Positions 1-36,287 are shown, counted from the first letter of the stretch. The stretch: DNA of 64,000 nucleotides from Holophagales bacterium (GCA_009836625.1 VXVC01000012.1:482847-546846), one strand, 5' to 3'. A program made the numbers and translations. Notes: generated from the sequence alone by a model not told the origin.

Positions 1-1512
<1,512 letters not shown>

Positions 1513-1606
1513 GGCCACGATAGCAGCCGTTGCGCTTTGCACGGGTCCGGCAGGCGCCGCCCGGCGGCGGCCGGCCCGGTCGGGCGAATAGAATCGAAGC
1601 GCCTCG

Positions 1607-4309
1607 GTGCGCGTCGAGATGGACATGGACCCCACAAACAGGCCAAGGACGGACCCGGCCCGCCAGGACGTCGACCCGGCCGAGACGGCCGAATGGCTCG
1701 AAGCCCTGGACGCGGTGATGGAGCGCGAAGGGCCGGAGCGCGCGCACTATCTGCTCGAAACCCTGGTGGACAAGGCTCGGAGGTCGGGCGCCTACCTGCC
1801 CTACAAGGCGACCACCGCCTACCTGAACACGATCCCGGTGCAGGCGCAGGAGCCGTTGCCGGGCGACGCGGACATCGAGTGGCGGATCCGCAGCATCGTC
1901 CGCTGGAACGCGATGGCGATGGTTGTCCGGGCCAACCATGACTACGAGGGGCTGGGCGGGCACATCGCGTCCTTCGCTTCCGCCGCCACCCTCTACGACG
2001 TCGGCTTCAACCACTTCTTCCACGCCCCGTCGGAGCAGCACGGCGGCGACCTGGTCATGGTCCAGGGGCACTCTTCGCCGGGCATCTACGCGCGCGCCTT
2101 TCTGGAGGGCCGGCTGAGCGAGGAGGAACTGCTGCGTTTCCGGCGCGAGGCGCGGCCGGGGGGCCTATCGTCCTACCCCCATCCCTGGCTGATGCCGAGC
2201 TTCTGGCAGTACCCGACCGTGTCCATGGGGCTCGGCCCGTTGATGGCGATCTTCCAGGCGCGGTTCATGAAGTACCTCCACAACCGCGGCCTGGTCGACA
2301 CCGAAGGGCGCAAGGTGTGGGCCTTCATGGGCGACGGCGAGATGGACGAGCCGGAGTCCCTGGGATCGATCTCGCTGGCCTCGCGCGAGAACCTCGACAA
2401 CCTGATCTTCGTCGTCAACTGCAACCTGCAGCGGCTGGACGGGCCGGTCCGAGGCAACGGCAAGATCATCCAGGAGCTCGAGGCCGTGTTCCGGGGCGCC
2501 GGCTGGAACGTGATCAAGCTGGTCTGGGGCTCCTACTGGGATCCGCTGCTCGCCCGCGACCGCCACGGGCTGCTGCGGCGGCGCATGGAGGAAGCGGTCG
2601 ACGGCGAGTACCAGGCATACAAGGCGAGCCAGGACGGCGGCTTCGTGCGCGAGCACTTCTTCGGCAAGTACCCGGAACTCAAGGCCATGGTCGCCCACCT
2701 GACCGACGAGGACATCTGGCGGCTCAATCGCGGCGGCCACGACCCGCACAAGATCTACGCCGCCTATGCGGCGGCGATGAAGCACGCCGGCCAGCCCACC
2801 GTCATTCTGGCCAAGACGGTCAAGGGCTACGGCATGGGCGAAGCGGGCGAGGGGATGAACATCACCCACCAGCAGAAGAAGATGGGACTGCGGGCTCTGA
2901 TGGGTTTCCGCGACCGCCTCGACATCCCCGTCTCGGACGAGGAACTGGAGGAGACGCCCTTCTACCGGCCGCCGGACGACAGTCCGGAGGTCCGCTACCT
3001 GAAGGAGCGCCGCGAGGCGCTGGGCGGCTACCTGCCGGCGCGGGAGGTCGAGGCCGCGCCGCTCGAGGTGCCCGACCTCTCCGCCTTCGACGCCCTGCTG
3101 CGGTCCAGTCGCGGCCGCGCGTTCTCGACCACGATGGCGTTCGTGCGGCTGCTGACCCTGCTCACCAGGGACCCGGCGATCCGCAACCGGCTGGTCCCGA
3201 TCGTCGCCGACGAGGCGCGCACCTTCGGCATGGAGGGAATGTTCCGGCAACTCGGCATCTACGCCCCCACGGGCCAGCTCTACGAGCCGGTGGACGCCCA
3301 CAAGATCGCGCCGTACAAGGAGGCCCGCGACGGCCAGATCCTCCAGGAGGGGATCAACGAGGCGGGAGCGCTCTGCTCCTGGATGGCGGCGGGCACTTCG
3401 GCCGCGAACCACGGCTTCCACATGATCCCGTTCTTCATCTTCTACTCGATGTTCGGGTTCCAGCGCGTCGGCGACCTGATCTGGGCCGCCGCCGACATGC
3501 AGGCGCGAGGTTTCCTGATCGGCGGCACCTCCGGGCGGACGACCCTGAACGGCGAAGGTTTGCAGCACCAGGACGGTCACAGCCATCTGGCCGCGTCGAC
3601 GGTGCCGAACTGCGTCTCCTACGACCCGACCTACGCGTACGAGCTGGCCGTCATCCTCCAGGACGGGTTGCGCCGGATGTACGCGGACGGCGAACCGGTC
3701 TTCTACTACCTGACGACGCTGAACGAGAACTACGAGCACCCGAGGATGCCCGAGGGCGCCGAGGACGGAATCCGGCGCGGGCTCTACCGGATCAGACCTG
3801 GTTCGCGGCACCGCAAGCGCGCCACGCTGCTTGGCTCGGGCGCGATTCTGCGCGAGGCGGAGGCCGCCGCCGAGATGCTGGAGGAGGACTGGAAGGTGTC
3901 CACCGAGGTGTGGTCGGCGACCAGCTTCAACAGGCTGCGGCGCGACGGCATCGAGGTGGAACGCTGGAACCGCCTCCATCCGGGCGAGGAGAAGAGAGTG
4001 TCCTACGTCCGGCAGTGCCTGACGGGCCGCGGCGGCGTCACCGTCGCCGCGAGCGACTACATGAAGGTCTACACGGACCAGATCCGCGCCTTCGTTCCGG
4101 GCCCCTACCGCACGCTCGGCACCGACGGCTTCGGTCGCAGCGACACCCGCGAGGAGTTGCGTGCCTTCTTCGAGGTCGACCGCCGGCACATCGTGGTGGC
4201 GGCGCTGGCCTCGCTGGCCGAGAACGGCGATATCGAATCCGAGGCGCCTGCGAAGGCGATCGAGGCCTACGGCATCGACCCGAACGCACCGAACCCGGCC
4301 ACCGCGTGA
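1607..4309 (+). CDS. aceE: Pyruvate dehydrogenase E1 component, homodimeric type
   Basis: 900-aa ORF. The N-terminus DVDPAETAEWLEALDAVMEREGPERAHYLLETLVDKARRSG parallels the E. coli AceE N-terminus, and the length fits. The true start may be the ATG at 1619 or 1625 rather than the GTG at 1607. A TAGAAT -10-like hexamer lies at 1588-1593. Confidence 0.93.
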   Translation: MRVEMDMDPTNRPRTDPARQDVDPAETAEWLEALDAVMEREGPERAHYLLETLVDKARRSGAYLPYKATTAYLNTIPVQAQEPLPGDADIEWRIRSIVRWNAMAMVVRANHDYEGLGGHIASFASAATLYDVGFNHFFHAPSEQHGGDLVMVQGHSSPGIYARAFLEGRLSEEELLRFRREARPGGLSSYPHPWLMPSFWQYPTVSMGLGPLMAIFQARFMKYLHNRGLVDTEGRKVWAFMGDGEMDEPESLGSISLASRENLDNLIFVVNCNLQRLDGPVRGNGKIIQELEAVFRGAGWNVIKLVWGSYWDPLLARDRHGLLRRRMEEAVDGEYQAYKASQDGGFVREHFFGKYPELKAMVAHLTDEDIWRLNRGGHDPHKIYAAYAAAMKHAGQPTVILAKTVKGYGMGEAGEGMNITHQQKKMGLRALMGFRDRLDIPVSDEELEETPFYRPPDDSPEVRYLKERREALGGYLPAREVEAAPLEVPDLSAFDALLRSSRGRAFSTTMAFVRLLTLLTRDPAIRNRLVPIVADEARTFGMEGMFRQLGIYAPTGQLYEPVDAHKIAPYKEARDGQILQEGINEAGALCSWMAAGTSAANHGFHMIPFFIFYSMFGFQRVGDLIWAAADMQARGFLIGGTSGRTTLNGEGLQHQDGHSHLAASTVPNCVSYDPTYAYELAVILQDGLRRMYADGEPVFYYLTTLNENYEHPRMPEGAEDGIRRGLYRIRPGSRHRKRATLLGSGAILREAEAAAEMLEEDWKVSTEVWSATSFNRLRRDGIEVERWNRLHPGEEKRVSYVRQCLTGRGGVTVAASDYMKVYTDQIRAFVPGPYRTLGTDGFGRSDTREELRAFFEVDRRHIVVAALASLAENGDIESEAPAKAIEAYGIDPNAPNPATA

Positions 4310-26667: not shown

Positions 26668-28122
26668 CTAGTTCAGCGCTGCGGCCGCAGCAGGAAACGC
26701 CTTCAGCACCTCCCGTGTCATGTCCCAGCGGTCGAAGCCCTGGCGCCCCCAGTCGAGGCCGCGGCGGACGATGACGAGGTCGTGGGAGGGGACGATGACG
26801 ACGTACTGGCCGCGGTTGCCGGCGGTGGAGTAGGCGTCTTTGGGGACGTCCCTGCGTTCGTCGGGGACGAGCCAGAACTGGCCGCCGTAGAAGTTGCCGC
26901 GGTTGGCTGTCGAGGGGGCCGGGGTGCGGACGAAGTCGATCCACTCCTCGGAGATGAGGCGTTTGCCGTTCCAGACGCCGTTCTGGAGATAGAGAAGACC
27001 GAAGCGGGCAAGGTCGCGGGTGCTGGTGTAGACCTGACTGCTGAGGATGAAGTCGCCGAAGCGGTCGGTGCTGAGCAGGGTGTTCCGCATGCCGATTCGG
27101 TCGAGCAGGCGCTTGCGCGGGAACTCGTGGTACTTCTTCTCGCTGCCGAGGGCGCGCTTCATCGCGTAGACGGCGAGCAGGGTGTCGTAGTTCTCGTAGT
27201 CCCAGTTGGCGCCCGGCTCGCGGATCAGGGCGCGGCGGCGTGCGCCTTCGACGGAGCTGGCGCCGGCCCAGTAGGACAGGCCGGAGCCGACGGCGTACTC
27301 CTGCCCGCCGTTGTCCACCGTCTGCAGGCCGCTCGACATGTTCAGCGCGTGACGCAGGGTGGTCGCGGAGCGCGGGTCGGTCTCCGCCGCGGCGGCTTCC
27401 TTGGGAAGGAAGTCGAAGCCGAGCGGCTCGTCGAGAGCCAGCTTGCCGTCGTCGACCAGCATGCCGATCAGCGTCGAGGCGATGCTCTTCGCCGTCGACC
27501 AGGTGCGCGTGCGCGTCGTCATGTCGACGCCGTCGGCGTAGCGTTCGTGGACGATCCGGCCGCGATGGACGACGAGCAGGCTCAGCGTGACCTGCTGGGG
27601 TGACTCGCGGTCGAAAGCCCAGTCGGAGGCGGCCTGGAGCGCGGTCGCGTCGACATCGGACGGCGGTGAGATCGGACCGGTCTTGTCTCCGTTGGGCCAG
27701 GGGATCTTCGCCGCATCGCCGGCCGGTGGCGGCATCTCGATGGCGGGCAGGCTGTCTATGTCCTCCAGTGTCTGATCGGGCGCCAGGACGACGCAGCCGA
27801 TTCCCTCGCGGAAGGCGGCCCGCATCTTCGGCACGCCGTGGCCCGATCCGATCGTCACGGCTCTGCGTTCCCAATCGACTTCGTAGTCGCCGCCTTCCGC
27901 GGTTCCGACCGGTTCCGGCAGGTAGGCGAGTTCCTGCGCGAACACCTGCTCGAGGGTCCGGTTGGACGTGAACAGCCCGTTGCACATGAAGATCGCCTGC
28001 TGGCCCAGGCGGACCATCTGCCGCTGCGGTTGCCAGTAGTCGTAGGTTTCCTCCTGCTGGGCGGCGGCGGGGAGAGCAGTCAGCAGGATGGAGGTGGCCA
28101 GAGCGGGACACCAGGACTTCAT
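26668..28122 (-). CDS. Secreted beta-lactamase-fold serine hydrolase (class C / esterase family)
   Basis: Signal peptide, SxxK nucleophile motif (WSTAKS), 484 aa. Confidence 0.8.
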   Translation of the reverse strand: MKSWCPALATSILLTALPAAAQQEETYDYWQPQRQMVRLGQQAIFMCNGLFTSNRTLEQVFAQELAYLPEPVGTAEGGDYEVDWERRAVTIGSGHGVPKMRAAFREGIGCVVLAPDQTLEDIDSLPAIEMPPPAGDAAKIPWPNGDKTGPISPPSDVDATALQAASDWAFDRESPQQVTLSLLVVHRGRIVHERYADGVDMTTRTRTWSTAKSIASTLIGMLVDDGKLALDEPLGFDFLPKEAAAAETDPRSATTLRHALNMSSGLQTVDNGGQEYAVGSGLSYWAGASSVEGARRRALIREPGANWDYENYDTLLAVYAMKRALGSEKKYHEFPRKRLLDRIGMRNTLLSTDRFGDFILSSQVYTSTRDLARFGLLYLQNGVWNGKRLISEEWIDFVRTPAPSTANRGNFYGGQFWLVPDERRDVPKDAYSTAGNRGQYVVIVPSHDLVIVRRGLDWGRQGFDRWDMTREVLKAFPAAAAALN

Positions 28123-28138: not shown

Positions 28139-28975
28139 TCAGCTCAAAGTAGCAGCACCGTCGCGAGCGCCAAGCCAGTACAGGTTCTGCCGGCCCCCGG
28201 GTCCGTCGGAGCGGTAGCGGGCGACTTCGGTCAACGGGAAGCCTTCGACCAGACGATCGAGTTCCGGTTCGCCGGCGTGGTGGCAGTAGCGGCGGGCCTG
28301 GTGCGCGGGTCTTCCGACCCGCTGCCGCCGGAGGCGGCGGGAGGATCGTCGCCGGCTTTGCCGGCGGCCTTCGGTGTCGGCCGGCCCCCAGCGGAGCAGG
28401 TGATCTCCGGGCTCGAGTTCCGCAGGGTCGACGCCGGCTTCCGAGGCCCAATCGAGCCGGCGGCGCTCGAAGCCGGGGTCGTCCGCGAACTGCCAGCAGG
28501 TGAGGGCGAGGAGGCCGCCGGGCGCCACGGCTGATGCGGCGCGTTCGAGGGTGCGGCGGCGCATGTCGAAGCCCGGGATGTGGTGGAGGACGCCGAAGAG
28601 GGTGACGAGGTCGTAGGTCGCTTCGGCGAGGGTGCAGTTCTCGATGTCGTTGGCCTCGAAGCGGATGTGGTCGAGGCCGGCGGCGGCCGCTCGGGCGTGG
28701 TCGATCAGCTCGCTGCTGAGGTCGATGCCCTGGTAGGTGAAGCGTCGGTCGCTGAGCAGTTCGGGGTTGTGCTGCAGGAACAGGGCGAAGCGGCCGTTCC
28801 CGCAGCCGAGGTCGAGGACACGTAGGGGGCGGTCCGTGGCCGGTGCCGCGGTTTCGACAACCCGCTGCCAGCCCGGCCAGCCGCCCGGGTGGCGGGTACG
28901 GTCGAAGTCGGCCGCGTGGCGGCTGTAGAAGTTGCGGTTGATCCGGCGGAGGGCGGCTTGCGTGAAGGCGTCCAA
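28139..28975 (-). CDS. Class I SAM-dependent methyltransferase
   Basis: SAM motif I VLDLGCGNGR and motif II/III spacing. The C-terminal third is Arg-rich, so a frameshift or mis-assigned end is possible. Confidence 0.65.
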   Translation of the reverse strand: MDAFTQAALRRINRNFYSRHAADFDRTRHPGGWPGWQRVVETAAPATDRPLRVLDLGCGNGRFALFLQHNPELLSDRRFTYQGIDLSSELIDHARAAAAGLDHIRFEANDIENCTLAEATYDLVTLFGVLHHIPGFDMRRRTLERAASAVAPGGLLALTCWQFADDPGFERRRLDWASEAGVDPAELEPGDHLLRWGPADTEGRRQSRRRSSRRLRRQRVGRPAHQARRYCHHAGEPELDRLVEGFPLTEVARYRSDGPGGRQNLYWLGARDGAATLS

Positions 28976-28981
28976 CCGGCT

Positions 28982-29794
28982 CTATCCAGAACCCAGGCTG
29001 AGCCCGCCGTCGACGGCGAGCAGGGCTCCGGTGATCCAGTCGTTCGCCGGGTCGCAGAGGAAGACGACGGCTCGCGCGACGTCGTCCGGTTCGCCGACGC
29101 GGCCCAGCGGCACCTCGTCGCCGAAGCCTTCGAGGAAGGCGGCGGCCTCGTCCGGCGGCATGATCGTCTCGAAGATCGGGGTGCGCACCACCCCGGGAAG
29201 CACCGCGTTTACCCGAATCCGGTCGCCGGCGAGTTCGGCCGCGAGGCTGCGGGTCAGCGCGTCGACGCCGGCCTTCGCGGCCGTGTAGACGGAGCAGTTG
29301 GCGAGCGGCGACTGAGTGAGCGACGAGGAGATGTTGACGATCGAGGCGCCGCCGCGACCCGCGCGGAGATGGGGGATCGTGGCCCGGGTCGCGAACAGCA
29401 CGCCCTTCAGGTCGACGTCGATGACGAGGTCGACCGGGTCGGGTTCGGTCTCGTCGCTCTCGGCCGCGAGCGGCCCGGCGCGGTAGACGCCGGCGCAGTT
29501 GACGAGGATGTCCAGCCCTCCGAGTTCGCGGGCCGCTTCTTCCACCATCTGCCGCGCGCCGTCCGCGCTCGAGACGTCGCCGGCGACGGCGACGGCGCGA
29601 AGGCCGAGCGCGCGCAGGTCGGCGGCGGCTGTTTCGACCACCTCCCGGCGGCGGCCGCCGAGGGCGATGCCGCATCCGCCCCGGGCAAGGGCACGGCCGA
29701 TCGCCAGTCCGATGCCGCTGCCGCCGCCCGTGATCAGGGCCGCCCGCCCCTGGAACAGTGTCCAGGTGGCCGTCTCGCCGGCTGTGGTCGTCAT
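28982..29794 (-). CDS. SDR-family oxidoreductase
   Basis: TGGGSGIG dinucleotide-binding motif and YxxxK (YTAAK). The start is taken at the internal ATG (MTTTAGETATW). Confidence 0.8.
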   Translation of the reverse strand: MTTTAGETATWTLFQGRAALITGGGSGIGLAIGRALARGGCGIALGGRRREVVETAAADLRALGLRAVAVAGDVSSADGARQMVEEAARELGGLDILVNCAGVYRAGPLAAESDETEPDPVDLVIDVDLKGVLFATRATIPHLRAGRGGASIVNISSSLTQSPLANCSVYTAAKAGVDALTRSLAAELAGDRIRVNAVLPGVVRTPIFETIMPPDEAAAFLEGFGDEVPLGRVGEPDDVARAVVFLCDPANDWITGALLAVDGGLSLGSG

Positions 29795-29842
29795 CGCCTC
29801 GTTGCCCGCAAGCGCCCGGTGCCGCCGTAGTAGGTTCCTGTC

Positions 29843-31678
29843 ATGGCGGCGACAATAGCCCCGAAGCGTTTCTCGTTCGAGCCCGAAGAGCACGCGGCGG
29901 AGCTCGACGCGATCATCGGCGCCATCGAGAGCGCGTCACGCTTCGAGGAGCGCGATCTCGACGATCTGCTGCGCCGCCACCCGAAGAACGGCAGGGGCTT
30001 CTTCTCGAAGAGCGAGTTGATCCGCGGCTATCGCGCGCTTCGACCCGGTTCGGCGGGCGAGCAGACTTTCGTCGACCGGGTGCGGATGAAGCCGGTCCGA
30101 ACGCGGAGCGGCGTGGCGCCGGTGACCGTGCTGACCAAGCCCTTCCCGTGCCCGGGCCGGTGCATCTTCTGCCCCAGCGACGTGCGGATGCCGAAGAGCT
30201 ACCTGTCGTCCGAGCCCGGCGCCCAGCGGGCCGCCGAACACCAGTTCGATCCCTACCGGCAGACCCTCTCCCGCCTCCGCTCCTACCGCCACACCGGGCA
30301 TCCGGTCGACAAGGTGGAGTTGATCGTCCTCGGCGGCACCTGGTCGAGCTATCCGGAGGGCTACCAGGTCTGGTTCATTCTGCGCTGTCTCCAGGCGATG
30401 AACGAGTTTTTCGACGTGTCGTCCGGGCCGGCGGCGGATCCGCTGCTGGCGCTCGATCCCGCGGTGGACTTTCGGCACCTCGAGGAGACGGTGCGGGGCG
30501 CGGAGGTCGACTCGTCGGACGCGGCAGCCGGCCGCAGCTACAACCAGGTCGTCTCCGACTGGACCGCCGCCCATCCACGGGCGGCCGCCGAGGCGCGCGA
30601 GCAGCACGCTGGCTGGGACGACCTGCTGGCGGCGCAGCGCGAGAACGAGACGTCGCCGGTCCGCTGCGTCGGGTTGTCGCTCGAGACCCGGCCCGACCGG
30701 CTCGACGCGGCGGAGGCGCTGCGCATGCGGCGGCTCGGAGCGACCAAAGTCCAGATCGGCATCCAGAGCATGGACGACGACGTTCTGGCCCTCAACGGCC
30801 GCGGCCACGATACGGCCCGGTCGCGGCGCGCCGTGCGCTTCCTGCGCCAGGCCGGCTTCAAGATCCAGGCGCACTGGATGCCGAATCTCCACGGTTCCAC
30901 GCCGGCCAGGGACCGGGAGGACTTCGACCGGCTGTTCGCGGATCCCGACGTACGTCCGGACGAACTCAAGGTCTATCCGTGCTCCTTGATCGAGAGTGCC
31001 GAACTCATGGCGTACCACCGCCGCGGCGAGTGGCTTCCGTACGAGACGGACGAGCTGCTCGACGTCCTGGTCTACGGTCTGGGCGGCGCGCCGCGCTACT
31101 GCCGCCTCAGCAGGGTGATCCGCGACATTCCCGGCACGGACATCGTCACCGGCAACCGCACGACGAACCTGCGTCAGGTGGCTGAGGCCGAGGCGGCGGC
31201 GCGCGGGATCCGCTGCCGGGACATCCGCGCCCGCGAGGTCGGCGGCCGCCCGGTCGAGCCGCGCCGGCTGCGCCTGCGGCGCACCGACTACGAGGCGTCG
31301 GGCGGCCGGGAGATCTTCCTCGAGTTCGTGACCGCGAATGACCGGATCGCGGGGTTCCTGCGGCTTCGCCTGCCCGGGCGGTCCGCCGCGGACGACATCT
31401 CGCTCCCGGAGCTGGCGAACAGGGCGATCATCCGCGAGGTTCACGTCTACGGAGCGGTCGTCGGCCTGGGTGAGCGGGAGGAGGGACGGTCGCAGCACGT
31501 CGGCCTCGGCCGGCGCCTGATCGCCGAGGCGCTGGACATCGCGGCCGGCGCCGGGTTTGGTCAGGTGGCCGTCATCTCCTCGGTCGGCACCCGCGAGTAC
31601 TACCGCCGGCTCGGCTTCGAGGACGGCGAGCTGTACCAGCACCGGTCGGCGCGGGAGCCGCTGGAGACTCCGACGTGA
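29843..31678 (+). CDS. elp3: Elp3-family radical-SAM / GNAT enzyme (tRNA wobble-uridine modification homologue)
   Basis: KPVRTRSGVAPVTVLTKPFPCPGRCIFCP matches the Elp3 N-terminal and CxxxxCxxC radical-SAM blocks. A central TIM-barrel region follows, then a C-terminal KAT/GNAT block (QHVGLGRRLIAEA). 611 aa. Confidence 0.85.
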   Translation: MAATIAPKRFSFEPEEHAAELDAIIGAIESASRFEERDLDDLLRRHPKNGRGFFSKSELIRGYRALRPGSAGEQTFVDRVRMKPVRTRSGVAPVTVLTKPFPCPGRCIFCPSDVRMPKSYLSSEPGAQRAAEHQFDPYRQTLSRLRSYRHTGHPVDKVELIVLGGTWSSYPEGYQVWFILRCLQAMNEFFDVSSGPAADPLLALDPAVDFRHLEETVRGAEVDSSDAAAGRSYNQVVSDWTAAHPRAAAEAREQHAGWDDLLAAQRENETSPVRCVGLSLETRPDRLDAAEALRMRRLGATKVQIGIQSMDDDVLALNGRGHDTARSRRAVRFLRQAGFKIQAHWMPNLHGSTPARDREDFDRLFADPDVRPDELKVYPCSLIESAELMAYHRRGEWLPYETDELLDVLVYGLGGAPRYCRLSRVIRDIPGTDIVTGNRTTNLRQVAEAEAAARGIRCRDIRAREVGGRPVEPRRLRLRRTDYEASGGREIFLEFVTANDRIAGFLRLRLPGRSAADDISLPELANRAIIREVHVYGAVVGLGEREEGRSQHVGLGRRLIAEALDIAAGAGFGQVAVISSVGTREYYRRLGFEDGELYQHRSAREPLETPT

Positions 31679-33090
31679 GCGCGCTCACGACCGACCTCTA
31701 CCAGTTGACGATGGCCCAGGGGTACTGGCGGCACGGCCGCCACCTGGACCGGGCCAGCTTCTACCTGTCCATTCGCCACACTCCGTTCGACGGCGGCTTC
31801 GCCGTCGCGGCGGGCCTCGAGCAGGTCGTGGATTTCCTGGTCGATCTTCGTTTCGAGCCCGAGGACCTCGAGTACCTGCGAAGCCTTGCCGGAAGCGACG
31901 GCAGGCCCCTGTTCGCCCCTGACTTCCTCGCGGCGCTGCCGACGCTCGACCTCTCCGTCTCGCTGGCCGCCGTCCCGGAGGGAACGGCCGTCTTCGCGCG
32001 AGAACCGCTACTCCGGATCGAGGCGCCGCTGCTGGTCGGCCAGTTGATCGAGACGCCCGTCCTCAACATATTCAACTTCCAGACGCTGGTGGCGACGAAG
32101 GCTGCCAGGCTTTGCCACATCGCCGCGCCGGGCCAGCCGGTGCTGGAGTTCGGTCTGCGCCGGGCGCAGGGCTTCGACGGCGGTTTGAGCGCCAGCCGCG
32201 CCGCCTACGTCGGCGGCTGCTTCGCGACCTCGAACGTCGAGGCGGGACAGCGCTTCGGCATTCCGGTGCGCGGTACTCACGCGCACAGTTGGGTCCAGGC
32301 CTTCGACTCGGAGCGTGAAGCGTTCGACGCGTTCGCGGAGACGATGCCGAACAACTGCGTCCTCCTGGTCGATACCTACGACGTGGAGCGGGGGATCGAG
32401 AACGCGATCGCCACCGCGCGGGTGCTCGAGCGGCGCGGCAAGCGGCTGCTCGGCATCCGTCTCGACTCGGGCGACCTGCTGCTGCAGAGCCGCGCGGCGC
32501 GGCGGCGGCTCAACGAGGAGGGGCTCGAGGACGTCGCCATCGTCGTCAGTGACAACCTGGACGAGAAGAAGATTCTGGCGTTGCGGCGGGCGGGCGCGGC
32601 GATCGACATCTGGGGCGTCGGCACCGCGCTGGTGACGGCGGCGGGCGCGGGCGCGCTGGGAGGCGTGTACAAGCTGTCGGCCATCCGGCGGAGCGGCGAG
32701 GAGGCGTGGCGGCCAGTGTTCAAGTTCGGCGCCGGCGTCGGCAAGGCCTCCCTGCCGGGGCGCCTGCAGGTGCGGCGCTACCGCGACGGCGCCGGCGGCC
32801 TGGAGCGGGACGTGATCCACGCGCTCGACGAGGGCGGGGAGGCCTCCGGCCTGGACGATCCGGGTGGCCAGAATCTGCTCGTGCCGGTGCTGGAGGACGG
32901 CCGGCTGATCGAGTCGCTGCCGTCGCTCGACGCCGCTCGCGAGACGGCGGGGCGCGAGGTGGCTTCACTGCCGTCGGCGTTGCAGGACCTCGAGGCTCAC
33001 GGGCCGGCGCCGGTCGAGGTCACGGCGAGCCTGATGGAGCAGTGCGACCGGCTGGCGGCCTCGCACGCACCGCCCGCCCGCTCGGCCTGA
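31675..33090 (+). CDS. pncB: Nicotinate phosphoribosyltransferase
   Basis: GTG start overlapping the elp3 stop (GTGA). N-terminal LTTDLYQLTMAQGYW and HAHS blocks of NAPRTase. 471 aa. Confidence 0.9.
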   Translation: MSALTTDLYQLTMAQGYWRHGRHLDRASFYLSIRHTPFDGGFAVAAGLEQVVDFLVDLRFEPEDLEYLRSLAGSDGRPLFAPDFLAALPTLDLSVSLAAVPEGTAVFAREPLLRIEAPLLVGQLIETPVLNIFNFQTLVATKAARLCHIAAPGQPVLEFGLRRAQGFDGGLSASRAAYVGGCFATSNVEAGQRFGIPVRGTHAHSWVQAFDSEREAFDAFAETMPNNCVLLVDTYDVERGIENAIATARVLERRGKRLLGIRLDSGDLLLQSRAARRRLNEEGLEDVAIVVSDNLDEKKILALRRAGAAIDIWGVGTALVTAAGAGALGGVYKLSAIRRSGEEAWRPVFKFGAGVGKASLPGRLQVRRYRDGAGGLERDVIHALDEGGEASGLDDPGGQNLLVPVLEDGRLIESLPSLDAARETAGREVASLPSALQDLEAHGPAPVEVTASLMEQCDRLAASHAPPARSA

Positions 33091-33136
33091 ACCTCCGGAA
33101 ACCGGCGCTTCGGAGGCCGGTCGTTCATAATCCCGC

Positions 33137-35230
<2,094 letters not shown>

Positions 35231-35234
35231 GCGG

Positions 35235-36287
35235 TCAGCTCCAGTCCGAGGCGTCGTCTTCGGAACCTGCAATGTGGACGCCGGCTTCCTGCCAGCGCTT
35301 CATCGAGGCTTCGACTTCAGGTGTGAAGTCGGCGAGGAAGCGCCCGGGCTTCGCCGGGTCGGGCACGGCGACCGCCGACATGCAGTCGGCCAGCACATGC
35401 AGCCTGCTTGCCGGGACGTCGCGGGACTGCATCTCGGCCAGCAGATCGTCGACCGTGTGACGAACGCAGTGGCTGGCCGCCTGGCCGGCCACGATGATTG
35501 CGTCGGCCTCGAGCAGCGAGTCGATCAGCGTCTCGTTGCGCCGATCGAGCTGCTCGCCGTCGTGTCGGACCAGCACTTCGGGCGCGAGCAGGGAGTAGAA
35601 CTCGGTCAGGGAGTTTGCGCCCTTGATCAGGATCGGCGTTTCGGCGCCGCGCGCGTAGCTGAAGAACAGCCGCGCTTCCTGCACCGCGCCGACCAGGCCG
35701 TGGCCCTCGCTGCCGAGAAAACAGTGCGGTGGCCACAGGTAGAGGCTGTACTTCCCGGTGGCTTCGAGCCGCCGGCAGTAGTCCAGGGCCTGGCGTCGCA
35801 GCCAGTCGTAGGTGCCGTCGCCGAACCAGCCGGCGAGAGCCGGGTTGGGCACCGCCTTGCCGGCTTCGACCTCGGAGGCGAGCACCTCACGGTAGCCGTC
35901 GAGCTGTTTGCCGGAGGCGTCGAGCCAGAACGAAGAGAAGAAGATCTGCTGCGGTGTGTGGCTGTCGAGGCTGGAGGCGATCTCGGTCAGGTTGCCGAGG
36001 TTGCGGTAGATGAAGCGGACCACGCGGTCGGTGTCCTCGATCGCGCCGCGGCCCGAACGGCCGCCGACGTAGAGCGCGCCTTCGGGCAGGCAGAAGTCCC
36101 GCTGTTCGTCGACCAGCAGGAGGATGCGGCGGGTCTCGTCGGTCGTCGCCGGGGTGAGCTCGTGGCGGCTTCGCCATTCGGCGGCCGCGGCCGCGACCCG
36201 GTTCGGGTCGGGGTTGTATGACCACTCGCCGCTCCGGTACGGATCGCTCTTCGGACCGGCGGCGGCTGGCAAGGGTAGGAGCGCCAT
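35235..36287 (-). CDS. Isochorismatase-family cysteine hydrolase, long form (putative nicotinamidase PncA-like)
   Basis: LLLVDEQRDF (catalytic Asp) and AGQAASHCVRHTVDD (catalytic Cys). The length of 350 aa resembles long eukaryote-like nicotinamidases. The context is pncB/nadE. Confidence 0.68.
   Translation of the reverse strand: MALLPLPAAAGPKSDPYRSGEWSYNPDPNRVAAAAAEWRSRHELTPATTDETRRILLLVDEQRDFCLPEGALYVGGRSGRGAIEDTDRVVRFIYRNLGNLTEIASSLDSHTPQQIFFSSFWLDASGKQLDGYREVLASEVEAGKAVPNPALAGWFGDGTYDWLRRQALDYCRRLEATGKYSLYLWPPHCFLGSEGHGLVGAVQEARLFFSYARGAETPILIKGANSLTEFYSLLAPEVLVRHDGEQLDRRNETLIDSLLEADAIIVAGQAASHCVRHTVDDLLAEMQSRDVPASRLHVLADCMSAVAVPDPAKPGRFLADFTPEVEASMKRWQEAGVHIAGSEDDASDWS

Follow-up and report, generated by a model that had tools for sequence, protein, structure and literature searches.

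The window, a 64,000-nucleotide stretch of DNA from a Holophagales bacterium (GCA_009836625.1 VXVC01000012.1:482847-546846), has its nearest public relatives in Candidatus Multivorans MAGs (Thermoanaerobaculia, Acidobacteriota). Genes for a methyltransferase (-), a short-chain dehydrogenase/reductase (SDR) (-), Elp3 (+), PncB (+), NadE (+), and a nicotinamidase (-) follow one another in this order. A reading made from the sequence alone (the sequence-only reading) had described elp3, pncB, nadE, and a 350-aa amidase here, and all four are present where it placed them. The features of the locus are as follows.

28139..28975, minus strand: class-I S-adenosylmethionine (SAM) methyltransferase, candidate Trm9-like enzyme for cm5U to mcm5U (278 aa, TTG start; family profile, synteny)
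28982..29794, minus strand: SDR (likely start ATG at 29794; adh_short_C2, NF005559)
29824..29868, plus strand: near-invariant 45-nt island, GCCGTAGTAGGTTCCYGTC-ATG-GCGGCGACAATAGCCCCGAARCG, which includes the elp3 start codon (alignment across 13 loci)
29843..31678, plus strand: Elp3, predicted radical SAM plus KAT/GNAT tRNA uridine-34 carboxymethyl (cm5U) synthase (611 aa; TIGR01211, Pfam, and structure matches)
31675..31678, plus strand: GTGA, 4-nt overlap of the pncB GTG start with the elp3 TGA stop (direct sequence reading)
31675..33090, plus strand: nicotinate phosphoribosyltransferase PncB (471 aa; TIGR01513, NF006695)
33137..35230, plus strand: glutamine-dependent NAD+ synthetase, the large NadE with CN-hydrolase and NAD synthase parts (697 aa; NF002730)
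35235..36287, minus strand: long-form bacterial nicotinamidase, PncA-like (350 aa; convergent on nadE)

The window is high in GC and as a result holds many long spurious open reading frames (ORFs).

The elp3 product matches NCBIfam TIGR01211 at 473.1 bits (cut-off, 350), with residues 73 to 598 corresponding to model positions 48 to 517 of 522, and exceeds the cut-offs of the Pfam profiles Radical_SAM (PF04055, 44.4 bits) and Radical_SAM_C (PF16199, 42 bits). Its C-terminal 157 aa (residues 455 to 611) match Acetyltransf_1 at 21.8 bits (cut-off, 20.7), and this C-terminal region aligns with the KAT domain of 6ia8. Two solved Elp3 structures match the protein closely (6ia8, E = 7e-104; 5l7j, E = 4.6e-100), and a public protein 99% identical to it already bears the name Elp3 at NCBI. 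The profile matches to TIGR01211, Radical_SAM, and Acetyltransf_1 bear out the proposal of a full-length Elp3 with radical SAM and KAT parts. The block KPVRTRSGVAPVTVLTKPFPCPGRCIFCP is present as the sequence-only reading quoted it; within it, C103-x3-C107-x2-C110, the cysteine motif of the radical SAM [4Fe-4S] cluster, does not vary among 13 relatives, and Q551-H552-x-G554-x-G556, which corresponds to the acetyl-CoA binding motif Q/R-x-x-G-x-G/A, is also invariant among relatives. This N-terminal block had been called eukaryote/archaeon-like, a description that holds in part: the KPVRT...CIFCP block is common to all Elp3, while the extension of approximately 80 aa that precedes it does resemble archaeal and eukaryotic Elp3.

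We compared the protein with the stand-alone Elp3 of Dehalococcoides mccartyi (DmcElp3; 5L7J) and Methanocaldococcus infernus (MinElp3; 6IA8), with which it shares the radical SAM plus KAT architecture and the absence of other Elongator subunits. The extension of approximately 80 aa before KPVRT is a likeness to MinElp3 and a difference from DmcElp3 (PMC6367351); the first 73 residues nonetheless do not align to the MinElp3 N terminus. Unlike both structures, the window protein carries an insertion of approximately 70 aa (residues ~190 to 260) within the radical SAM domain, and its gene differs from theirs in that its stop codon overlaps the start of pncB. Bacterial and archaeal Elp3 are reported to conserve a CxCxxC zinc motif in the inter-domain linker (PMC6367351). 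The window protein does not have it, reading CRDIRA where MinElp3 has CRCIRC and thus lacking two of the three cysteines, and the one that remains varies across the clade. To our knowledge, eukaryotic Elp3 is also without the motif, so its absence does not exclude the window protein from Elp3. Placement of cm5U on U34 is established for archaeal and Dehalococcoides Elp3, and from family membership it follows that the window protein would synthesize cm5U. The further statement that Elp3 is rare in bacteria needs qualifying, since relatives are encoded by at least 599 stretches in a collection of 185,579 species-representative genomes; recent literature refers to "numerous bacteria" with Elp3 (PMC13315578).

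Direct reading of the elp3-pncB junction (...ccgacGTGAgcg) confirmed that the elp3 stop (TGA, 31676 to 31678) overlaps the GTG start of pncB (31675 to 31677), as had been claimed. This GTG, which has GGAG 8 nt upstream, is the sole start codon that retains the conserved NAPRTase N terminus (TIGR01513 model position 1 is residue 3). All 12 Multivoraceae loci that extend to the junction, the window included, have an NTGA overlap, which takes the form GTGA in the window and nine other loci, ATGA in L009, and TTGA in L010. It is kept despite a variable Elp3 C-terminal tail, and the 4-nt overlap and upstream GGAG(G) are preserved exactly down to 66% Elp3 identity, which counts against a reading of pure inheritance. 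The overlap and the internal Shine-Dalgarno sequence indicate that elp3 and pncB are almost certainly cotranscribed, with pncB translation coupled to that of elp3.

The genes downstream of elp3 encode a recognizable set of NAD salvage enzymes. PncB matches TIGR01513 at 492.8 bits (cut-off, 297.4), NF006695 at 481.3 bits (cut-off, 469), and the Pfam profiles NAPRTase_N, NAPRTase, and NAPRTase_C (PF17767, PF04095, and PF17956). After a gap of 46 nt comes the large nadE, as the sequence-only reading had it; the product scores 1016.1 bits against NF002730 (cut-off, 473) and matches both CN_hydrolase (PF00795) and NAD_synthase (PF02540). The convergent 350-aa protein, whose stop codon lies 4 nt from that of nadE, falls below the cut-offs of the general profiles (Isochorismatase, PF00857, 19.7 bits versus 27; NF008623, 29.1 versus 174). 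Its D60/K222/C274 triad and D108/H110/H188 metal site are invariant in 28 family members, its motifs VDEQRDF, WPPHC, and SHCV align to Mycobacterium tuberculosis PncA, and the top 10 Foldseek matches of its AF2 model (pLDDT, 87.6) in the PDB are all nicotinamidases (2wta, 2h0r, 3r2j, 9u8m, 1ilw, and 3pl1). The protein is a member of a divergent long-form nicotinamidase subfamily.

The length, convergent orientation, and PncA-like character claimed for this protein stand; its likening to eukaryotic enzymes does not, since it belongs to a large bacterial family of members of approximately 350 aa that NCBI names nicotinamidase. The long Drosophila nicotinamidase (9U8M) is of similar length (327 aa, versus 350 here) and shares the nicotinamidase core fold, yet the match gives a TM score of only 0.49 by query and 0.52 by target, whereas short bacterial and yeast enzymes give target TM scores of 0.72 to 0.77. 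Because the Drosophila match is no better than those to short enzymes, homology of the extra length is not shown. Like bacterial Preiss-Handler clusters (pncA, pncB, and nadE), the window places genes for PncB and a glutamine-dependent NadE together with one for a nicotinamidase whose Asp-Lys-Cys triad and metal site are complete. It differs from them in that a tRNA modification gene stands at the head of the cluster and is translationally coupled to it, nadD is not part of the cluster, and the nicotinamidase is of the 350-aa long form, extended at the N terminus and interrupted by an insertion.

How far the association between elp3 and NAD salvage extends was assessed in approximately 68 Elp3 loci outside Multivoraceae, drawn from Acidobacteriota, Myxococcota, Chloroflexota, Patescibacteria, and Verrucomicrobiota. 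pncB adjoins elp3 in only two of these (L028 and L081, both from Thermoanaerobaculia relatives), and tblastn (E ≤ 0.01; fetched flanks of up to 8 kb) detected neither a PncB-like sequence in any other outside locus nor a NadE- or nicotinamidase-like sequence in any of them. In a neighbor-joining tree, L028 and L081 are among the nearest Elp3 relatives of Multivoraceae; three other tree neighbors (L014, L021, and L035) are without pncB. Identities to the window proteins fall in parallel for PncB and Elp3 (46% and 58% in L028; 51 to 55% and 61% in L081), which fits one origin followed by vertical divergence. Within Multivoraceae, conservation of the flanking genes for SDR, methyltransferase, and enoyl-CoA hydratase is about equal to that of the elp3-pncB link, and the link to NAD genes decays about as fast as the surrounding neutral synteny. 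The elp3-pncB link does outlast the links to nadE and nicotinamidase in L028 and L081, a persistence compatible with some selection for coexpression.

The divergently transcribed methyltransferase gene, which is co-oriented with the SDR gene, is the only elp3 neighbor conserved across phyla: it is present at 56 of 82 Elp3 loci, 55 times on the opposite strand, at a median distance of 102 bp from the elp3 start. The intervening SDR gene (adh_short_C2, 194 bits; NF005559, 219 bits [cut-off, 215]), whose stop lies 6 nt from the methyltransferase start, occupies this position only in Multivoraceae, L081, and L035. The methyltransferase matches only generic Pfam profiles (Methyltransf_23, Methyltransf_25, and Methyltransf_11); its class-I Rossmann fold includes the SAM-binding motif D-x-G-C-G-N-G, and fold searches (AF2 model pLDDT, 90.3) do not discriminate among class-I methyltransferases. 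When its family profile was run against the PDB, the best match was Yarrowia Trm9 (5cm2_Z; E = 2.9e-13, 52.7 bits, with the next at 45.7 bits), in an alignment that spans the TRxxPWP, DxGCGNG, HH, and W motifs.

Five residues of Saccharomyces cerevisiae (Sc) Trm9, R29, D72, H115, H116, and W145, are experimentally important (PMC4678810), and all five pair with invariant residues of the bacterial family. R29, H115, H116, and W145 correspond in the HMM alignment to R28, H131, H132, and W161 of the window protein, which are invariant in two alignments of 27 and 30 family members; the conserved set thus comprises the arginine, the SAM-binding aspartate, the HH dyad, and the tryptophan of Trm9. For the C-terminal Sc residues W168, R241, Y243, and N271, the candidates W196, R229-Y230-C231, and N264 are invariant or nearly so and are assigned by motif order and spacing only: HMMER gives no alignment there, a profile of the C-terminal part has no Trm9 match, and the counterpart of Y243 would be a cysteine, the window protein having RYCH where Trm9 has R-Y-Y. 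Two homologs are named TRM9 by JGI.

Like the Elp3-Trm9 pathway of yeast (Trm9-Trm112; PDB 5CM2) and Haloferax (Trm9-Trm112), the window thus pairs a class-I methyltransferase with Elp3, here genomically, and genes for Elp3 and a Trm9 ortholog cluster in the archaeon Sulfolobus solfataricus (PMC5372719, PMC6144793). The pair in the window differs from those of yeast and Haloferax in being bacterial, in having the SDR gene between methyltransferase and elp3, and in having no adjacent Trm112 gene, for which small gene there is no room beside the methyltransferase in the window. According to a 2017 review, genes resembling those for Trm112-partner methyltransferases had not been detected in bacteria (PMC5372719). 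The methyltransferase might instead have a different substrate (another nucleoside, a protein, or a small molecule), with some other reason for its link to elp3. We regard this as somewhat unlikely: Trm9 is the top PDB match of the family profile, in an alignment that takes in the N-terminal arginine motif; the residues that match functional residues of Trm9 do not vary; tight divergent pairing with elp3 extends across phyla in 55 loci; and JGI gives the name TRM9 to two members.

The SDR and elp3 genes are separated by a divergent intergenic region of 48 bp, and the 45-nt island at the elp3 start has no second copy in the window and is found a single time in each family locus. In five loci (L004, L006, L008, L009, and L010), its ATG opens an upstream ORF of 32 to 50 codons whose TGA overlaps the elp3 start, coupling the two translationally, and three metagenome matches to the island all lie in the same context. 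The island has no Rfam match at E ≤ 10 and shows no sign of RNA structure, and the elp3 leader holds no NAD riboswitch or other Rfam element. Candidate readings are a translation initiation or promoter module, or an operator.

The sequence-only reading took the gene arrangement to suggest either that wobble modification is coregulated with NAD status or that this Elp3 has a role outside tRNA. If the former were true, wobble-uridine modification and NAD salvage would be deliberately coexpressed, for instance so that translation is tuned in step with NAD or nutrient status, with the elp3-pncB coupling setting a fixed protein ratio. The overlap with its upstream Shine-Dalgarno-like GGAG in every family locus, the persistence of the elp3-pncB pair in L028 and L081, two loci in which the genes for NadE and nicotinamidase are either absent or not seen, and the strongly conserved island at the operon start, which suggests controlled expression, all speak for such coupling. 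We nonetheless consider it unlikely. The link does not recur independently, as approximately 66 other Elp3 loci in at least five phyla have no NAD gene nearby; it is missing from close relatives (L014, L021, and L035), whether lost or never acquired; unrelated flanking genes are equally conserved within the family; the leader lacks a recognizable riboswitch; and a literature search found no paper linking Elp3 with NAPRTase. Four-nucleotide overlaps are, moreover, the commonest same-strand junction in compact high-GC genomes, whatever the functions of the genes.

A non-tRNA role, in which the Elp3 KAT domain would have an NAD-pathway protein or metabolite as its substrate, for example as the acetyltransferase counterpart to a sirtuin that consumes NAD and yields nicotinamide for recycling by PncA and PncB, is very unlikely. 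The adjacency of a GNAT/KAT domain to NAD salvage genes is circumstantial evidence for it, as is the missing zinc motif in this clade. Against it, conservation covers the radical SAM cysteines, the acetyl-CoA motif, and the entire Elp3 architecture, and an Elp3-specific model scores the protein at 473 bits; the cluster has no sirtuin gene; and only one partner of elp3 is deeply conserved, a Trm9-like tRNA methyltransferase, which favors the canonical function on tRNA. Lin et al. (2019) found acetyl-CoA hydrolysis by bacterial, archaeal, and eukaryotic Elp3 to be triggered only by tRNAs and not by histone or tubulin peptides or other nucleic acids (PMC6367351). Mis-assembly or mis-called ORFs in a high-GC MAG were also considered as the source of the adjacency and overlap, given the spurious ORFs that high GC produces and an apparent Elp3-NAPRTase "fusion" protein (P0080), which comes from a 4×-coverage contig with a frameshift. 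This explanation is refuted: 11 independent assemblies of relatives, of which several are complete chromosomes, share the gene order and the NTGA overlap, so that the adjacency is not peculiar to one assembly, and full-length profile matches confirm both reading frames.

Together, these results favor, as the likely explanation, a canonical stand-alone Elp3 and Trm9-like pair that was fused into an operon with NAD salvage genes in a lineage-specific manner and has been kept by inheritance. Elp3 would use its radical SAM site and KAT-bound acetyl-CoA to carboxymethylate wobble uridine 34 at C5, and the divergent Trm9-like methyltransferase would probably then methyl-esterify cm5U to mcm5U. In the adjoining Preiss-Handler salvage genes, the nicotinamidase would convert nicotinamide to nicotinate, PncB would make NaMN, and NadE would amidate NaAD to NAD. 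One acidobacterial lineage would thus have joined two ordinary modules into a single divergent gene cluster, and we do not read this operon fusion of housekeeping genes as Elp3 acting in NAD metabolism.

Considered alone, a bacterial mcm5U module of Elp3 and a Trm9-like methyltransferase, which many uncultured bacteria (Acidobacteriota, Myxococcota, Chloroflexota, and others) may carry, has slightly better than even chances of being real. A more elaborate version, in which this archaeal/eukaryote-type wobble-uridine pathway has in Multivoraceae been deliberately wired to NAD salvage through the 45-nt start module and serial coupling from leader ORF to elp3 to pncB, appears quite improbable. 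If it were true, wobble modification and NAD recycling would be expressed in a fixed ratio in these bacteria, for a physiological reason.

The region has a GC content of about 70% and therefore carries many spurious long open reading frames (ORFs) on both strands; genuine genes were told from these by profile searches. The genes around elp3 are as follows.

28139-28975, minus strand: class-I SAM methyltransferase (Pfam matches only generic methyltransferase)
28982-29794, minus strand: short-chain dehydrogenase (SDR), whose stop lies 6 nt from the methyltransferase start
29843-31678, plus strand: Elp3 (TIGR01211, 473 bits; cut-off, 350)
31675-33090, plus strand: nicotinate phosphoribosyltransferase, PncB (TIGR01513, 493 bits)
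33137-35230, plus strand: glutamine-dependent NAD synthetase, NadE (NF002730, 1016 bits)
35235-36287, minus strand: isochorismatase-fold protein of 350 amino acids (aa), a nicotinamidase (general profiles score below their cut-offs)

The outer genes are unrelated (a sulfotransferase, a beta-lactamase-family hydrolase, an enoyl-CoA hydratase, a second SDR, and an enolase-superfamily protein). The window contains no tRNA genes, and cmscan found no Rfam match across it at gathering thresholds. Between positions 28000 and 36600, a sigma-70 scan returned no promoter-like sites, and a terminator scan returned a single terminator-like site, inside the nicotinamidase gene and below shuffle expectation.

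The sequence-only reading had taken the elp3 product for a full-length Elp3 with a C-terminal KAT (GNAT) domain, and the protein bears this out. Profile searches find a radical SAM core, Radical_SAM_C, and a GNAT domain (which exceeds its Pfam cut-off in a scan limited to the last 157 residues), and alignments to solved archaeal and bacterial Elp3 proteins reach E values of about 1e-100. Its relatives all keep the CxxxCxxC cluster cysteines and the QHxGxG acetyl-CoA motif unchanged, and a public protein 99% identical to it is already called Elp3 by NCBI; the nearest genomes are metagenome-assembled genomes of Candidatus Multivorans and Multivoraceae (Thermoanaerobaculia, Acidobacteriota). Elp3 of this clade differs from that of Methanocaldococcus infernus in reading CRDIRA instead of CRCIRC at residues 459 to 464, and so lacks two of the three CxCxxC zinc-motif cysteines; it also carries an insertion of about 70 aa and variable length in the radical SAM domain (residues ~190 to 260). 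Archaeal and Dehalococcoides Elp3 proteins make cm5U34 on tRNA (PMC6367351, PMC13315578), and the window enzyme would be expected to do the same. A collection with one genome per species contains at least 599 stretches that encode a relative of Elp3, and the best 80 of these represent Acidobacteriota, Myxococcota, Chloroflexota, Patescibacteria, Verrucomicrobiota, and other groups. Though uncommon in bacteria, Elp3 is thus not the rarity it had been called, and stand-alone Elp3 is no mere Dehalococcoides curiosity.

The layout of the NAD genes was also read correctly. The elp3 stop and the pncB start share GTGA at 31675 to 31678, with GGAG 8 nt upstream; this GTG is the first start codon of its frame and the sole one that keeps the NAPRTase N terminus TDLYQLTM. 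nadE follows after 46 nt, and the 350-aa gene converges on it, the two ending 4 nt apart (35230 to 35235) with no terminator-like hairpin between them. We compared seven window proteins by tblastn with 80 genomic loci (the best 80 of at least 599) plus one further locus on a metagenomic contig, L081. In the 11 other Multivoraceae loci (L001 to L011), the order methyltransferase-SDR, elp3-pncB-nadE, and nicotinamidase is kept as far as the contigs extend, except that L010 has no nicotinamidase. The 4-nt overlap is present in the window and in all 11 (GTGA in the window and nine others, ATGA in L009, TTGA in L010), usually with GGAG(G) 8 to 10 nt upstream of the pncB start, and it is kept despite variation in the final residues of Elp3. 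Complete chromosomes account for several of the records that show it; this is thus a real and inherited arrangement.

Outside the family, elp3-pncB was found at two of the loci searched, L028, where sbcD-sbcC follows, and L081. In a neighbor-joining tree of Elp3, both fall beside the Multivoraceae clade, interleaved with L014, L021, and L035, which have no pncB, and the link probably had a single origin. No PncB-, NadE-, or nicotinamidase-like sequence was detected by tblastn (E ≤ 0.01) in the fetched flanks of the remaining loci. The L081 pair is called as an 827-aa Elp3-NAPRTase fusion (P0080; L081 8001 to 10484); with 4x contig coverage and a PncB part that runs on in a different frame, this fusion probably reflects an error of sequencing or assembly, and we took it as evidence of adjacency alone. 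In the nearest outgroups, elp3 or elp3-pncB is followed by a nuclease gene pair resembling sbcD-sbcC, with matches to Metallophos and SMC_N/AAA_23 (L028, 11218 to 15004; L014, 10065 to 14118; L035, 10914 to 14827); this may represent the ancestral downstream context. Upstream of methyltransferase-SDR-elp3, the L081 contig also carries genes for both archaeal-type topoisomerase VI subunits (602 to 3641), one matching Topo-VIb_trans/HATPase_c and the other TP6A_N/Toprim.

Within the family, the unrelated neighbors (methyltransferase, SDR, and enoyl-CoA hydratase) are kept as well as elp3-pncB, and among the five nearest outgroups pncB is present in two, the SDR gene in two, and the methyltransferase gene in four. 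The elp3-pncB link thus follows the pattern of ordinary synteny within a single lineage. We consider it likely that the junction is a fusion of housekeeping genes into an operon: elp3-pncB(-nadE) would lie on one transcript, translation of pncB would be coupled to termination of elp3, and the NAD genes would run the Preiss-Handler route, with nadD encoded elsewhere. The sequence-only reading had seen in the same junction either co-regulation of tRNA wobble modification with NAD status or a non-tRNA role for this Elp3; its observation stands, and its interpretation is supported in part. Independent recurrence of elp3-pncB or NAD-responsive expression would strengthen the case for co-regulation; neither is seen, the former among the loci searched, and we consider co-regulation unlikely. 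Nothing supports a role for this Elp3 outside tRNA, which we regard as highly improbable. Literature searches turned up nothing relevant on Candidatus Multivorans or on any connection between Elp3 and NAPRTase. The feature is thus a set of genes of known kinds (Elp3, PncB, NadE, and nicotinamidase) in a lineage-specific operon arrangement.

Neither the general isochorismatase cut-off nor that for PncA is reached by the 350-aa protein, which belongs to a large bacterial family of ~350-aa members that NCBI names nicotinamidase, as it does the close homologs (88 to 89% identical). An Asp-Lys-Cys catalytic triad and an Asp/His/His metal site are invariant in this family, and all 10 top PDB matches of the predicted structure (pLDDT 87.6) are solved nicotinamidases. 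A long, PncA-like amidase had thus been recognized rightly; its proposed likeness to eukaryotic enzymes did not hold. The long Drosophila nicotinamidase gives a TM score of ~0.5 against the window protein, no better than the short enzymes (target TM scores of 0.72 to 0.77), and "eukaryote-type" by length alone is therefore unjustified; these scores and the bacterial distribution of the family rule the label out. Adjoining the nicotinamidase gene is the enoyl-CoA hydratase gene (crotonase family; ~36.3 to 37.17 kb, plus strand), whose product is unusually strongly conserved across loci (94 to 97% identity, versus 66 to 81% for Elp3). Its best NCBIfam match is DpgD-like (320 bits; cut-off, 400), and its longest ORF runs into the 5' end of the nicotinamidase gene, so its start is ambiguous.

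The starts of the SDR gene (29794) and elp3 (29843) are only 48 bp apart, and here lies an island of 45 nt (29824 to 29868, plus strand), GCCGTAGTAGGTTCCYGTC-ATG-GCGGCGACAATAGCCCCGAARCG, that is nearly invariant in 13 family loci with variable flanks and was also noted at L082 to L084. The island ATG serves as the Elp3 start in the window and at six more loci, where MAATIAPKR is joined to the conserved RFSFEPEEH. In five loci it opens instead a leader ORF of 32 to 50 codons, M[A/V]ATIAPKR plus a variable tail (L004, 7831 to 7983; L006, 7879 to 7983; L008 and L009, 7885 to 7983; L010, 7858 to 7983), whose TGA forms an ATGA or GTGA overlap with the Elp3 start; these five loci therefore carry a serial chain of overlaps from leader ORF to elp3 to pncB. 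The window has no second copy of the island, and each family locus has just one; a genome-wide regulatory motif was rejected on this copy number and on three metagenome matches, all to the same locus type. No NAD or other riboswitch was matched in the elp3 leader (cmscan, 29600 to 30100, E ≤ 10), RNAalifold gave short invariant helices with no covariation, and the single-sequence fold had a z-score of 0.04. Several readings are possible: GTAGGT, located 7 nt before the ATG, may be a Shine-Dalgarno-like sequence; TAGGTT may be a -10-like element, the AUG then being leaderless; or the island may hold an operator or, on the minus strand, a promoter of the SDR-methyltransferase pair. Two loci outside Multivoraceae carry, in the SDR-elp3 interval and in the orientation of elp3, a gene X (L035, 6997 to 7947; L081, 6928 to 7884) encoding a conserved protein of 316 to 318 aa with a signal-peptide-like N terminus and no Pfam match; a derivation of the island from this gene was rejected, as the N termini of X are unrelated.

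Clustering of all ORFs within 5 kb of elp3 at 82 loci identified a single neighbor family that crosses phyla, that of the window methyltransferase (28139 to 28975). It is present in 56 of the 82 loci, on the strand opposite elp3 in 55, and its median distance to the elp3 start is 102 bp. Counted against the roughly 75 loci whose upstream sequence extends for 1 kb or more, the pairing frequency is approximately three quarters. The gene directly adjoins elp3 in 36 loci; in Multivoraceae, the SDR gene is inserted between them. A single-sequence search returned generic methyltransferases only. Against solved structures, the best match of a 27-member family profile was Yarrowia Trm9 (5cm2_Z; E = 2.9e-13, 52.7 bits; next match, 45.7 bits). 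Fold searches, which do not distinguish among class-I methyltransferases, gave no proof that it is Trm9. In the profile alignment, the family-invariant R28, D55, H131, H132, and W161 correspond to R29, D72, H115, H116, and W145 of Saccharomyces cerevisiae Trm9, in which mutation of R29, D72, H116, or W145 abolishes or strongly reduces activity and H115A lowers it about fourfold (PMC4678810). The C-terminal half has an invariant RYCH and N-x-Y in the order and spacing of Trm9 R241-Y242-Y243 and N271; used alone as a profile, this half gave no meaningful PDB match and no statistical alignment to Trm9. Two homologs are called TRM9 by JGI. By sequence, then, the methyltransferase paired with Elp3 looks like Trm9, and it may turn cm5U into mcm5U.

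Genes for Elp3 and a Trm9 ortholog are clustered in Sulfolobus solfataricus (PMC5372719, PMC6144793), and according to a 2017 review no bacterial genes similar to Trm112-partner methyltransferases had been detected (PMC5372719); no account of an Elp3-Trm9 pair in bacteria came up in our literature search. The methyltransferases of 278 to 279 aa (P0121 to P0127 and P0129) carry an arginine-rich insertion, ADTEGRRQSRRRSSRRLRRQRVGRPAHQA, at residues ~198 to 226 that is missing from the 254- to 255-aa forms of close relatives; it is real, not an assembly error, and is modeled with low confidence (pLDDT 54 to 59). The homolog at L028 (7222 to 7971, minus strand) lacks the conserved RYCH motif, and its C-terminal sequence is unrelated, probably through an assembly frameshift or gene decay.

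Taken alone, the elp3-pncB junction joins known genes in an arrangement specific to one lineage, and the island with its leader ORF offers a small, clean case for translational coupling in Acidobacteriota. The main value of these results lies in the widespread and testable pairing of bacterial Elp3 with a Trm9-like methyltransferase. If this methyltransferase makes mcm5U, wobble-uridine chemistry held to be archaeal and eukaryotic would be widespread in bacteria, where it would accompany or replace the MnmE/MnmG pathway.
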